Source: Bdellovibrionota bacterium (GTDB taxonomy: Bacteria; Bdellovibrionota; UBA1018; UBA923). Taken from it: a DNA stretch of 64,000 nucleotides. Below, piece by piece: positions 42,030 to 53,283 of this stretch. Positions within the stretch are counted from its first letter, which is position 1. Every line of letters begins with the position of its first letter. The notes under the pieces were generated by a model. It was not told the origin of the DNA. It made no database searches and saw only the letters and a list, made by a program, of their open reading frames with translations. A program made the translations under genes and the position numbers. The DNA lies in the NCBI GenBank assembly GCA_040754655.1, contig JBFMCE010000003.1, positions 3,231-67,230 of the forward strand, in the 5' to 3' direction.

Positions 42030-42928
42030 AACTTGGCTTGGGTACCGTGCAGTTCGGCTTAAACTACGGTGTCTCAAACCGATCTGGGATCGTAGCGCCG
42101 TCCGAAGTGAAGAATGTACTGGCATGCGCTGCGAAGTCCGGCGCCGTTGGCTACCTTGATACGGCGACCGCTTACGGGAGCGCAGAAGAGGTTCTGGGTG
42201 CGACCCTTGAACAGAGGCACCCATTCAAGATCGTGACGAAAACCCCGACTTTTAAAGATTCCTTGATTTCTAGCGAGAGTGCCGACGAGTTGGAACGAAG
42301 TTTCAGGAAGTCATTGTTAAGACTGAACCAGACTGCAGTCTATGGCCTGCTTGCGCATCACGCCTCACCTCTTCTTGATCGCGATGGCGCGTTCTTGTTC
42401 GATCGAATGTTGAAGCTCAAAGAACAAGGCGTGGTGAAAAAGATCGGCGTCTCGGTTTACAGCGCCGAAGAAATAGATCGGGTCATTGAACGCTATCCTG
42501 TTGAGCTGATCCAAGCGCCTGTGAGTCTTTTAGATCAGCGTCTTGTGACCGGTGGGCACTTGGCGCGCTTGAACGAAAGAGGCATCGAAGTGCATGCCCG
42601 CTCTGTTTTCTTGCAAGGGCTTCTTTTGATGGAGGCCGATAATATTCCTCGGAACTTGGCTTCGATTCAAGAGCATTTGGGCAACTTGCGTGCTGAGGTC
42701 GAAGCACGGGGGCTGACGATGTTGCAGGCGGCGCTGGGTTTTGTATTGAATCTAGAAGCCGTGACGGCATGCTTGGTGGGTGTTTGCTCTTTAAGCGAGT
42801 TGAATCAAATCTTGGAAGCAGCCCGGTTGGCGCAAGAAAAGAAATTTGAGATCTCAGGCGTCGCAGCAAGTGCCGCTTGGGACGATGAGAGGGTGTTGAA
42901 CCCATTTTTTTGGGAGAAGTATGCTTAA
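42026..42928 (+). CDS. Aldo/keto reductase
   Basis: [18 protein letters not shown]...DTATAYG is the AKR N-terminal signature. Confidence 0.8.
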
Positions 42929-44084
42929 AAGATGCGTGAAATGCGGTTTGCCAGAGACCTACGAGACGATCGAATTCGACGCTTCAGGGGTCTGCAATAT
43001 TTGCCGCCAAAAAAACTTCAAAGATGCTTCGATCGACTGGAAGGCGAGGAAGGTGATGTTCGATCAACTCGTTGAAGAGTATCGAGGCAAATATGAATAT
43101 GATTGCATCGTGCCCTTCTCGGGCGGGAAAGATTCGACGTTCACTTTGAATTATCTGATGCGCAAGTACAAACTCAAGCCTCTTGTCGTTCAGTTCAATC
43201 ATGGGTTCATGCGAGAGAATCTGCTGAAGAACAACGAACGGACCTTCAAAAAACTGGGAGTCGATGTGTTGAGCTTCACTCCTAATTGGAAAGTCGTCAA
43301 AAGGTTGATGCTCGAGGCTTTGATCCGAAAGGGTGATTTTTGTTGGCATTGCCATACGGGCATTTTTTCGTATCCCATGCACGTTGCGATCAAATACAAT
43401 ACGCCGCTCGTCATTTGGGGTGAACCCTCTTCTGAGTACACGGCGTATTACGATTACCGAGACAATGAAATCGAAGAAGTTGATGAGACCAGATTCAATC
43501 GTTTCGTGAACCTGGGTATCACTGCTGAAGACATGGCCGGGATGATCAAAGATGATTTCAATCTTGATCCACGAGACCTTGCTCCTTATGCGTATCCGAA
43601 GACCAGAGACTTGAAGCGCCTTAAGTATCGGTCGGTCTGCCTGGGCTCTTTCATTCCCTGGGATGTGAAGCGCAATGTTGAAGAGATCTCTCGCGATTTG
43701 GGTTGGAAGGGCGATGAAGTAGAGGGCATGCCGCCAGGCAAGTATCCTTACGAAAAGATCGAGTGCTACATGCAGGGCGTGCGAGATTACATCAAGTACC
43801 TCAAGCGTGGCTACTCACGCGTGACGCAAATGACTGCATTGGATCTTCGAAATGACCGTATTTCAAAAGAAGAAGCGGATCGACTGGTCGAGGAATATGA
43901 GGGCAAAAAGCCGCCATCGTTGCAGCTGTTCTTAGAGTACTTGGGGCTTAGCGAACAAGAGTTCAACGAGATCGTAGCGAAAACTGTGGTTCCTCCTTTC
44001 AAACCTGATTTTGAAACCATTCCGAGCGCGCCAAATACCTGGGATTTCGAACGCTGGTATCGCGAGGGTAAGGAAAAACCATGA
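42921..44084 (+). CDS. N-acetyl sugar amidotransferase, PP-loop ATPase (PseA/WbuX/WbpG-like), copy 1
   Basis: N-terminal Cys4 (CVKCGLPE...CNIC), PP-loop PFSGGKDST, and followed by hisH/hisF homologues. Confidence 0.8.
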   Translation: MLKRCVKCGLPETYETIEFDASGVCNICRQKNFKDASIDWKARKVMFDQLVEEYRGKYEYDCIVPFSGGKDSTFTLNYLMRKYKLKPLVVQFNHGFMRENLLKNNERTFKKLGVDVLSFTPNWKVVKRLMLEALIRKGDFCWHCHTGIFSYPMHVAIKYNTPLVIWGEPSSEYTAYYDYRDNEIEEVDETRFNRFVNLGITAEDMAGMIKDDFNLDPRDLAPYAYPKTRDLKRLKYRSVCLGSFIPWDVKRNVEEISRDLGWKGDEVEGMPPGKYPYEKIECYMQGVRDYIKYLKRGYSRVTQMTALDLRNDRISKEEADRLVEEYEGKKPPSLQLFLEYLGLSEQEFNEIVAKTVVPPFKPDFETIPSAPNTWDFERWYREGKEKP

Positions 44085-44698
44085 TCGGCATCCTTGACAT
44101 GAATATGGGAAATCTCAGGTCCGTGACCAATGCGGTTTACAGCTTGGGTTATGATCCCAAGGTTATTCATGACCAAGAGGGCTTGAAAGAAGCGTCACAC
44201 CTTATCATTCCGGGAGTAGGTGCTTATCCGGCAGCGATGCGCCAGCTTGAGGCGATGAACCTGAAGGACGCGATCAAAGATTTTGCCAGCACCAAGCGGC
44301 CGGTGCTTGGGATTTGCTTAGGCATGCATATCTTCTCGACTTCTGGTGAAGAGGGGGGCGGAGCCGAAGGGTTAGGCCTTGTTCCGGGAGAGGTGCTGCG
44401 CATCGATACTCAGCCCGGACTGGTAGTCCCTCATGTGGGATGGAACAACATCCGATTTCTCAAAGAGCATCCTGTGCTTGAGAAGGTCAAGGACGGCGTC
44501 GATTTTTACTTCGTGCATTCGTATCGCTATGTTTGCGAGGACCAGCAAGACGCATTTGGCGAAACCGAATATGGTGATGCTTGGCCGTCAGTGGTCGCCA
44601 AAGACAACGTCATCGGTTTTCAATTCCATCCAGAGAAAAGCCAGATCAACGGTTTGAAGCTGATCGAGAATTTCTGCGAGTGGGATGGCAAATGTTGA
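44081..44698 (+). CDS. Imidazole-glycerol-phosphate-synthase HisH-like glutamine amidotransferase (WbuY-like), copy 1
   Basis: LIIPGVGAY...GICLGMH (catalytic Cys)...FQFHPEKS (His/Glu). Confidence 0.85.
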   Translation: MIGILDMNMGNLRSVTNAVYSLGYDPKVIHDQEGLKEASHLIIPGVGAYPAAMRQLEAMNLKDAIKDFASTKRPVLGICLGMHIFSTSGEEGGGAEGLGLVPGEVLRIDTQPGLVVPHVGWNNIRFLKEHPVLEKVKDGVDFYFVHSYRYVCEDQQDAFGETEYGDAWPSVVAKDNVIGFQFHPEKSQINGLKLIENFCEWDGKC

Positions 44699-52157: not shown

Positions 52158-52161
52158 AGCC

Positions 52162-53283
52162 ATGCAGTATTGTTCACGTTGTGTTTATCCAGAGATCGCG
52201 GTCAACCTTCTCTTAGATGATGAAGGGATCTGTTCCGCCTGCCGGTCTTATGAAGAGTTTGAAAAGCTTCCACTTGAGTTCTGGAACCAAAGAGAAGTTG
52301 CCTTTCGAGATCTTTTAGAGAGCTATCGCAATAAGAAACAAGACAACTATGATTGCATCATTCCGGTTTCGGGCGGGAAAGACAGCTATTGGCAGACCCA
52401 TCTCGTAAAAAATGTTTATAAGCTGACTCCGTTGTTGGTGACCTATCATGGCAACCGTTTTCTTCCCGAAGGCGAAGAGAACCTCAATAACATGCGGCAT
52501 GTCTTCGGAGTCGATCACGTCATTTTTCGCCCAAGCACCGAAATGTTGAAGAAACTCAACAGAGCTGGCTTTAAGAAGACCGGAGACATGAATTGGCACA
52601 ACCATTGCGGCATTTACACCTATCCGGTTCAAATGGCGGCTCAACTCAATATTCCTTTGATCGTTTGGGGTGAAACACCTTGGGATATTTCTGGCATGTT
52701 CGGGGCCAACGACTTCCCTGAGATGAGCGCGAGAGAGCGCCTTGAGCATGGGCAGCGCGGTTTTGATTGGCACGACTTCGTGGGCGTGGAGGGGCTTGAG
52801 GCTAAAGACTTGCTCTGGGCGCGTTACCCAAGCGACGAAGAGATCAAGCGCGTGGGGATTCGCGGCATTTACGTCGGCAACTTTATCAAGTGGGATGAGA
52901 ACAAGCATTCCAAGCTGGTTGAGGAGAAGTACGGTTTCCAGAAAGCCAGGCAGCCCTTCGAGCGTACGTACCGGCTTTTCTCGAACTTGGATGATATCCA
53001 TGAAAATGGCGCGCATGACTATCTGAAGTACATTAAATTTGGCTATGGCCGGGCTTCGGATCACGCTTCAAAAGATATCCGCAAAGGTTATATGACCCGT
53101 GAGCAAGGTATTGAAATGGTCCGAAAATATGACGCCGTCAAATCGAGTGATACCTACAATTGGCTTGAGTACGTGGGGATGAGTGAAAAGGAATTTGATG
53201 AAATAGCCGACACGTTTCGCGACAAACGGGTCTGGCGGAAAGATTCAGCGGGCAATTGGGTCAAAGACAATCTTTGGGATTGA
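52162..53283 (+). CDS. N-acetyl sugar amidotransferase, PP-loop ATPase, copy 2
   Basis: CSRCVYPE...CSACRS zinc ribbon and PP-loop IPVSGGKDSY, paralogous to the ORF at 42921. The ATG at 52162 has an AGGAG RBS. Confidence 0.8.
   Translation: MQYCSRCVYPEIAVNLLLDDEGICSACRSYEEFEKLPLEFWNQREVAFRDLLESYRNKKQDNYDCIIPVSGGKDSYWQTHLVKNVYKLTPLLVTYHGNRFLPEGEENLNNMRHVFGVDHVIFRPSTEMLKKLNRAGFKKTGDMNWHNHCGIYTYPVQMAAQLNIPLIVWGETPWDISGMFGANDFPEMSARERLEHGQRGFDWHDFVGVEGLEAKDLLWARYPSDEEIKRVGIRGIYVGNFIKWDENKHSKLVEEKYGFQKARQPFERTYRLFSNLDDIHENGAHDYLKYIKFGYGRASDHASKDIRKGYMTREQGIEMVRKYDAVKSSDTYNWLEYVGMSEKEFDEIADTFRDKRVWRKDSAGNWVKDNLWD

Follow-up and report, generated by a model that had tools for sequence, protein, structure and literature searches.

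Why would a bacterium carry two complete gene sets for amidinating N-acetyl sugars within a single operon? The question is raised by a 64,000-nucleotide stretch of the genome of an uncultured Bdellovibrionota bacterium (GenBank assembly GCA_040754655.1, contig JBFMCE010000003.1, positions 3,231 to 67,230), here called the window, in which a pseudaminic acid (Pse) operon encodes two triplets, each of a PP-loop N-acetyl sugar amidotransferase (NASAT; X when gene orders are given), a HisH-like glutaminase subunit (H) and a HisF-like barrel (F). Both triplets are complete and intact, and both are predicted acetamidino-forming systems of the WbuXYZ/AglXYZ type. Acetamidino groups turn nonulosonic acids from anionic to zwitterionic and alter their recognition by antibodies, phages and host lectins. 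We tentatively favor the reading that the two sets amidinate different positions of Pse, and we weigh this below against other roles for the second set.

Two intact triplets in one pse operon

The gene map combines a mechanical open reading frame (ORF) map with Pfam and NCBIfam scans of the window. These scans show a large surface-glycan region with glycosyltransferases, an ABC exporter, a polyprenyl glycosylphosphotransferase, a Wzy_C/O-antigen-ligase-like protein and several methyltransferases. Within it, 16 closely packed plus-strand genes (39874-55892) form one pse operon, in the order pseB, pseC, aldo/keto reductase (AKR), NASAT-1, hisH-1, hisF-1, GNAT acetyltransferase, a cytidylyltransferase/class III aminotransferase fusion, pseG, pseH, pseI, hisH-2, hisF-2, NASAT-2, an S-adenosylmethionine (SAM) methyltransferase and a 535-aa protein. 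With likely starts used, the intergenic spacing across the 16 genes is -8 to +6 nt. The gap 5' of pseB contains a promoter-like site (39611-39640), and a promoter and terminator scan inside the operon gave no signal exceeding shuffled expectation. The six triplet genes, with their scores and curated cut-offs, are as follows.

42921-44084, + strand: NASAT-1 (WbuX1 clade), PP-loop N-acetyl sugar amidotransferase; TIGR03573 (WbuX) 343.9 bits, cut-off 203.2
44081-44698, + strand: HisH-1, glutaminase subunit; TIGR01855 223 bits; GICLGMH at residue 77, HPE at residue 183
44692-45456, + strand: HisF-1 (WbuZ-like); TIGR03572 (WbuZ) 272 bits, cut-off 299.7
50712-51338, + strand: HisH-2, glutaminase subunit; TIGR01855 228.9 bits; GICVGMQ at residue 83, HPE at residue 190
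51345-52157, + strand: HisF-2 (WbuZ-like); TIGR03572 271 bits, cut-off 299.7
52162-53283, + strand: NASAT-2 (WbuX2 clade); TIGR03573 325.8 bits, cut-off 203.2

A preliminary description of this DNA, made from the letters and the ORFs, had placed two triplets at 42921-45456 and 50712-53283, the former in the order X-H-F and the latter H-F-X, in a pse operon. Both are there, on the plus strand and in those orders. Some boundaries were refined: the ORF of hisF-1 spans 44581-45456 and its likeliest true start is the ATG at 44692, the GNAT gene probably starts at 45459, and the NASAT-2 ORF opens with a GTG at 52141, with a likely start at the ATG at 52162 (homologue alignments begin at query residue 7-8).

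The hallmarks of the NASAT family, drawn from the structure of the Legionella pneumophila enzyme (LpNASAT), are a PP-loop SGGxDS and a tetracysteine zinc motif CxxCxn[GN]xCxxC (PMC10607449). In the window, NASAT-1 has the PP-loop SGGKDS at residue 67 and NASAT-2 has it at residue 70, and the four-cysteine motif is intact in both (CVKC...GVCNIC, from residue 5, in NASAT-1; CSRC...GICSAC in NASAT-2). LpNASAT (8WEX), the sole solved NASAT, thus has its PP-loop and zinc site in common with both copies; it differs from them in its length of 468 aa, in an N-terminal extension and in being distant from both window clades. Its match to NASAT-1 has E=3e-25 (92 bits) and that to NASAT-2 E=5.5e-38 (134 bits), so that this enzyme, which is assigned to N5 of legionaminic acid (Leg), is nearer to NASAT-2.

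Both HisH copies carry the nucleophile motif GIC(L/V)GM and the HPE motif, and the catalytic Cys is therefore retained. Alignment to HisF structures shows residues R5, E46, K99, E167 and D130 kept in both HisF copies, with position 11 occupied by Leu in HisF-1 and Phe in HisF-2. In HisF, Asp11 serves the cyclase reaction and gate residues control the passage of ammonia, and the pattern fits an ammonia-delivering barrel, presumably not a histidine-pathway cyclase. Both copies score below equivalog level, for WbuZ as listed above and for AglZ/HisF2 (NF038364) with 246 bits for HisF-1 and 225 bits for HisF-2 against a cut-off of 310; because of these scores, we place them as sister lineages of WbuZ and AglZ, outside either equivalog. 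The closest homologues are full length, at 85-88% identity. A pseudogene reading, which the preliminary description had raised for a copy with a lost PP-loop or catalytic Cys, was rejected, since every motif is intact and both copies are full length.

Two lineages of triplet

The two copies are 31% identical for NASAT, 37% for HisH and 37% for HisF in pairwise alignment. For comparison, we used 55 genomic loci at NASAT-2 relatives, 80 metagenomic loci at NASAT-1 relatives and 10 further contexts, with all of their ORFs mapped onto the window proteins. Counts below refer to 55 WbuX1-clade loci, 29 of them long, and to 59 WbuX2-clade loci, 43 of them at least 15 kb; for the AKR and GNAT neighbours, only loci with room on the relevant side were counted.

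Median identity within clades is 72% for WbuX1 and 58% for WbuX2, and identity across the clades is 24-36%. Gene order follows the same division: 45 of the 55 WbuX1-clade loci have X-H-F, and the 59 WbuX2-clade loci have H-F-X in 43 cases and F-X in 7. The HisH and HisF of a locus are nearly always closest to the cognate window copy (one exception, L055), from which we take the triplets to be inherited as units. NASAT-1 has thousands of relatives at 78-85% identity, including proteins of Paenibacillus, Azonexus, Polyangia and Oligoflexia; relatives of NASAT-2, at 55-69% identity, occur in bacteria of the candidate phyla radiation, DPANN archaea, Planctomycetota, Verrucomicrobiota, Omnitrophota and SAR11. 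The two sets are evidently ancient, separate, phylum-spanning module types, each with its own gene order. A recent duplication was rejected, as the copies are only 31-37% identical and sit in separate clades; the preliminary description had argued the same from divergence and permuted order.

As a separate observation, the WbuX1 clade (P0001-P0120; L063-L142) is unusually conserved for a glycan-tailoring enzyme, its 72% median and 78-85% identity to the window copy extending over Bdellovibrionota, Firmicutes, Betaproteobacteria and Myxococcota. Such conservation implies what is presumably strong constraint combined with frequent horizontal transfer of the module.

Both modules are linked to pseudaminic acid clusters

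All six core Pse enzymes are encoded in the operon: PseB, PseC, PseG, PseH and PseI score above curated cut-offs, and PseF is represented by the PF02348 domain of the 680-aa fusion. The operon genes outside the triplets are listed here.

39874-40869, + strand: pseB, UDP-GlcNAc 4,6-dehydratase (inverting), first gene of the operon; TIGR03589 550.5 bits, cut-off 407.75
40866-42029, + strand: pseC aminotransferase; TIGR03588 548.9 bits, cut-off 423.5; 4-nt overlap with pseB
42026-42928, + strand: aldo/keto reductase (AKR); PF00248 99 bits
45459-46016, + strand: GNAT acetyltransferase (GNAT1), likely start ATG 45459; PF13302 94 bits
46013-48055, + strand: PseF-like cytidylyltransferase + class III aminotransferase fusion, 680 aa; PF02348 at residues 3-186, PF00202 at residues 288-583
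48052-49122, + strand: pseG; TIGR03590 286.9 bits, cut-off 153.55
49073-49684, + strand: pseH; TIGR03585 102.7 bits, cut-off 93.1
49666-50715, + strand: pseI, pseudaminic acid synthase; TIGR03586 488 bits, cut-off 340.25; 4-nt overlap with hisH-2
53290-54288, + strand: class I SAM methyltransferase after NASAT-2; PF13489 82 bits
54285-55892, + strand: 535-aa protein, final operon gene; homologues elsewhere at 30-35% identity

Each half of the operon has counterparts elsewhere. Five WbuX1-clade loci (L068, L074, L083, L085, L092) have the order pseB-pseC-AKR-X-H-F-GNAT-pseF/aminotransferase-pseG-(pseH)-pseI, which is the window order from 39874 to 50715, and Azonexus (L003) has the genes of this block in a rearranged order. 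The AKR gene is immediately 5' of the WbuX1-clade gene in 13/55 loci and found in 19 of the 29 long loci; a GNAT gene is directly 3' of HisF1 in 26/47 loci and found in 27 of the 29. For the other clade, the 43 loci of at least 15 kb contain PseB in 26 cases, PseC in 25, a clear PseI in 18 and a NeuC-type protein in 2. In about ten loci pseI stands directly 5' of the HisH/HisF of the triplet, as it does in the window, including loci where it comes just before H-F-X (L022, L024, L025, L026, L034, L042, L053, L061). A homologue of the methyltransferase is immediately 3' of the WbuX2-clade gene in 20/55 loci. Each module is usually the sole amidination set of a Pse cluster, and the window looks like two standard conserved blocks joined at one pseI.

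We also asked whether companion tailoring genes separate the clades by amidination position. Genes for formyltransferases, PIG-L deacetylases and GNAT proteins occur with both clades and give no N5-versus-N7 signal, and a radical-SAM gene is limited to three WbuX2-clade loci. Inferring specificity from companion genes was dropped, as their co-occurrence does not discriminate between the clades.

Several companions call for comment of their own. The cytidylyltransferase/class III aminotransferase fusion, whose aminotransferase part is glutamate-1-semialdehyde aminomutase-like, is also found in L003, L005, L143 and L145; Pse clusters from many phyla have fusion, AKR and GNAT together (L003, L005, L068, L074, L143, L145). 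We know of no role for a class III aminotransferase or an aldo/keto reductase in the textbook Pse pathway, and the two may add a further sugar modification. In the PDB, the methyltransferase after NASAT-2 weakly resembles nucleotide-sugar methyltransferases, and a second Methyltransf_23 protein of the window (3231-4247, 338 aa) is 26% identical to it. Searches of Pfam, NCBIfam and the PDB gave no match for the 535-aa protein. Its homologues, at the identities listed above, directly follow NASAT modules in the unrelated loci L005, L034, L075, L099, L110, L111, L115, L122 and L136, and the protein may be a transferase for nonulosonates or an enzyme that modifies them.

Double sets are rare and recurrent

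A WbuX2 gene is present in 2 of the 29 long WbuX1-clade loci (L001, L063), both of one Oligoflexia-like lineage. In L001 (Oligoflexia MAG GCA_034439615.1, 10001-16066), the closest relative, and likewise in L063, the genes form a contiguous X1-H1-F1-GNAT-F2-X2-methyltransferase array beside pseB-pseC, with one HisH, two HisF and two NASAT genes, and the window pair is 85-88% identical to this relative. Among the nearest WbuX1 relatives examined, three (P0005, P0009 and P0011, 82-85% identical) have a single set. In the Oligoflexia locus the glutaminase thus appears shareable, with each NASAT retaining its own HisF-like partner. A private HisF per NASAT despite a shared HisH would mean that the HisF-like barrel is a partner-specific adaptor.

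Double sets also occur far from this lineage. A Parvicellaceae metagenome-assembled genome (MAG; L053, 2907-11191) has pseB-pseC-X-H-F-pseF-pseG-pseI-H-F-X, its first NASAT being outside both window clades (35% and 41% identity), and in a Pelagibacteraceae (SAR11) genome (L055, 3943-11023) two triplets flank a pseF/aminotransferase fusion. All four NASATs of these two loci pass TIGR03573. The sole nonulosonate synthase within 10 kb is PseI (487 bits in L053 and 395 bits in L055, cut-off 340), and no Leg-type genes were detected within 10 kb of either pair of triplets. L010, from a gammaproteobacterial MAG, combines two NASATs with a single HisH/HisF pair. Double sets are, on this sample, rare but recurrent in distant bacteria, with independent origins in SAR11 and Parvicellaceae.

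A legionaminic acid pathway beside the operon

The preliminary description had overlooked two features that bear on the second set, the methyltransferase after NASAT-2 and a Leg-type pathway at 55868-64000, 0-10 kb 3' of the pse operon, which is an obvious alternative source of a second substrate. This pathway is without a NASAT of its own.

55868-56524, - strand: NeuD/PglD-type N-acetyltransferase (LegH-like); TIGR03570 224 bits, cut-off 160.8
56619-57668, + strand: CBS-domain nucleotidyltransferase; PF00571 + PF00483
57665-58363, + strand: CMP-nonulosonate cytidylyltransferase; PF02348; PseF model 157 bits, below cut-off
61202-62281, - strand: NeuB/LegI-type synthase, not PseI; TIGR03569 473.7 bits, cut-off 399.65
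62278-63432, - strand: NeuC/LegG-type hydrolysing 2-epimerase; PF02350 309 bits
63519-64000, + strand, running off the window: LegB-type 4,6-dehydratase, 5' part (first 160 residues); TIGR04180 257 bits, model positions 2-159 of 297

The CBS-domain nucleotidyltransferase is PtmE-like. No LegC was seen in the window, and it may lie past base 64000, as the source contig is 67.6 kb long. An AsmA/DUF748-like ORF (58315-59661, 448 aa) lies between the cytidylyltransferase gene of this pathway and its divergent synthase genes; it is followed by an uncharacterized minus-strand ORF of 552 aa (59629-61287).

Known systems with NASATs

In arrangement, the window resembles Campylobacter jejuni, where PseA (Cj1316c) and PtmG/PtmH (Cj1324/Cj1325) likewise represent two NASAT paralogues in one glycosylation region with Pse and Leg pathways, and where one NASAT gene has after it a methyltransferase gene whose product N-methylates the amidine. 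C. jejuni 11168 has the order pseA-hisH-hisF, that of triplet 1, and Campylobacter has, as far as is known, one HisH/HisF pair for its two NASATs. The window differs in providing a full HisH/HisF pair for each NASAT and in having both sets inside one pse operon. Escherichia coli O145 (WbuXYZ) and Methanococcus maripaludis (AglXYZ) combine a NASAT with HisH-like and HisF-like proteins as the window does, in the X-H-F order of triplet 1; the substrate of AglX is ManNAc3NAcA. In Pseudomonas aeruginosa O5, the order is hisH2-hisF2-wbpG, or H-F-X as in triplet 2; the WbpG substrate is a 2,3-diamino uronate, and the window is without the WbpB-, WbpE- and WbpD-type genes that synthesis of such a sugar requires.

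The substrates of these enzymes are diverse. WbuX of E. coli O145 acts on FucNAc, a hexosamine derivative, unlike the Pse setting of the window, and WbpG makes the 3-acetamidino group of ManNAc3NAmA (PMC10607449). In C. jejuni, PseA is responsible for the amidino group of Pse and PtmG for that of Leg (PMC5378307; PMC3766260); PtmG converts CMP-Leg5Ac7Ac to CMP-Leg5Am7Ac, and PtmH then N-methylates the amidine (PMC3766260). Natural amidine positions include N7 on C. jejuni Pse, N5 on Tannerella forsythia Pse and N5 on Leg (PMC5378307; PMC3766260). In Legionella, ORF28 of the LPS locus, a PtmG homologue, was assigned to Leg5Am7Ac, with ORF8 N-methylating the amidine (PMC3766260). An alignment figure in PMC10607449 shows three NASAT accessions from Vibrio vulnificus, two of them consecutively numbered. 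Given these accessions and the PseA/PtmG pair of C. jejuni, the preliminary statement that known systems use a single set was too strong. New here are two complete triplets in one pse operon, for which we found no precedent in the literature searched, along with the two portable module types and their recurrence across phyla.

What the two sets may do

Gene content, motifs, the two lineages and the recurrence of double sets are observed; substrate, chemistry, regiochemistry and stage of action are what we infer in the following scheme. In each set, the HisH-like subunit would hydrolyse glutamine, the ammonia would pass through the HisF-like barrel, in which the gate residues are present and the cyclase Asp11 is absent, and the PP-loop, zinc-binding NASAT would use ATP to activate an N-acetyl carbonyl and replace its oxygen by NH, giving an acetamidine. 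Module 1 comprises X-H-F plus GNAT, between pseC/AKR and pseF, and module 2 H-F-X plus methyltransferase, after pseI; the two, as pre-existing types, would have been joined around a single pseI. Because the operon combines two conserved modules that existed before, two distinct amidination steps, as proposed in the preliminary description, are a reasonable expectation.

Which substrates these steps would serve is less certain, and we tentatively prefer two regiospecific amidinations of Pse, one at N7 and one at N5, the latter followed by N-methylation. Module 1 would modify the N7 acetyl, as PseA does in C. jejuni, an assignment suggested by the accompanying acetyltransferase, which could install that acetyl group. 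Module 2 would modify the N5 acetyl, after which the methyltransferase would N-methylate the amidine, as PtmG/PtmH do on Leg; this assignment is suggested by the nearness of NASAT-2 to the Legionella N5 enzyme and by a methyltransferase pairing like that of PtmG/PtmH. The two sets would yield Pse with two amidines, or a mix of Pse molecules with one and with two, and presumably act on the CMP-sugar. Four observations argue for both sets acting on Pse: the linkage of both clades to Pse clusters across phyla, the coupling of hisH-2 to pseI (the Leg genes forming separate, partly divergent transcription units), the fused Oligoflexia locus, and the double triplets of L053 and L055 with PseI alone in the 10-kb view. 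If both do act on Pse, their repeated independent retention would argue that the sets are not redundant, and one set per N-acetyl group would be the simplest arrangement. The two targets named in the preliminary description fare differently: two positions on one nonulosonate is the option favored by the PseI-only loci, and a 2,3-diamino uronate is unsupported. A full Pse5Am7Am-type sugar, with both N-acetyls converted to amidines, one of them N-methylated, by two regiospecific NASAT-HisF machines, is possible yet doubtful.

Several points weigh against two amidinations of Pse. The N-methyl-acetimidoyl group has so far been reported on Leg only (bioRxiv 10.64898/2026.04.20.719630), and no di-amidino nonulosonate was named in the literature searched, in which subscription carbohydrate chemistry is thinly covered, making this weak evidence. 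The N5 or N7 assignment of either clade is our inference, and the companion genes described above give it no signal. The Leg pathway of the window, having no NASAT, starts right after the module-2 block; L030 and L031, both from Chthoniobacter, and L009, from a Micrarchaeota MAG, likewise show the WbuX2 block next to Leg-type genes. Finally, L053 and L055 were viewed over 10 kb per side, and a Leg pathway is possible elsewhere in those genomes.

The main rival takes its lead from these points and divides the labor as in the flagellar glycosylation locus of Campylobacter, with triplet 1 acting on CMP-Pse like PseA, and triplet 2 and its methyltransferase acting on CMP-Leg like PtmG/PtmH. The adjoining Leg pathway would then be supplied with the NASAT it lacks, the PtmG/PtmH precedent is on Leg (PMC3766260), as is the only known N-methyl amidine, the methyltransferase pairing recurs in the 20/55 loci noted above, the Legionella enzyme scores higher with NASAT-2 than with NASAT-1, and in Chthoniobacter L031 the genes run X2-MT-legF-legG-legH-ptmE...legB-legC (MT, methyltransferase) in one direction. 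Set against this, triplet 2 is translationally coupled to pseI, and the 535-aa gene and a strand switch intervene before the Leg genes; among the 43 long WbuX2-clade loci, PseB and PseI (26 and 18 loci) far outnumber NeuC (just 2); six loci with an X2-methyltransferase pair show no synthase other than PseI (L025, L026, L034, L039, L043, L056); and the same holds for L053 and L055 with their double triplets. We had considered triplet 2 and the methyltransferase as a plain PtmG/PtmH of the Leg pathway and demoted this to a rival as the 59 WbuX2-clade loci proved mainly Pse-linked; we now regard it as rather unlikely. A redundant mosaic, in which recombination between two types of pse cluster would have produced sets that share substrate and position, giving more flux or with one being lost, seems improbable: the operon joins two blocks that are each found alone elsewhere, double sets are confined to one lineage among the long WbuX1-clade loci, and the near relatives P0005, P0009 and P0011 have a single set, but both sets are fully intact here, the Oligoflexia relative, at 85-88% identity, lost one HisH and retained both HisF and both NASAT genes, and SAR11 and Parvicellaceae acquired double sets independently. 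Quite improbable, and the least credible of the readings weighed here, is that one triplet acts on another N-acetyl sugar of the glycan, for example converting GalNAcA/GlcNAcA to a 2-acetamidino uronate. The window does encode a TviB-like UDP-GlcNAc 6-dehydrogenase (18762-20036, 464 bits) and a GalE/TviC-like epimerase (27441-28418), and WbuX and WbpG work on hexosamine derivatives (PMC10607449); homologues of both genes (51% each) directly after the WbuX1 triplet in L106, and of the dehydrogenase (44%) in L125, are weak hints in the same direction. The preliminary description had singled out the two genes as the relevant neighbours of a 2,3-diamino uronate target, but they lie 15-24 kb away in other transcription units, the window scans found no GFO/MocA oxidoreductase, second DegT aminotransferase or WbpD-type acetyltransferase, and both triplet clades are overwhelmingly in nonulosonate clusters. 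The dehydrogenase neighbours in L106 and L125 are the only observation that we made toward a hexosaminuronate target.

If two amidinations of Pse are confirmed, this sialic-acid-like sugar would carry two amidiniums against one carboxylate and be positively charged overall, a cationic surface sugar of which we found no description in the literature searched; a search on Bdellovibrio pseudaminic acid returned nothing relevant. The X-H-F-GNAT and H-F-X-methyltransferase modules could help to predict glycan chemistry from genomes, and their enzymes are tractable ones for settling NASAT regiospecificity. The findings are compatible with current knowledge, each set taken singly being an ordinary case of a known system.

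Elsewhere in the glycan region, the ORF at 5154-6212 encodes a 352-aa protein with a C-terminal HNH endonuclease domain, which may be the trace of a mobile element.

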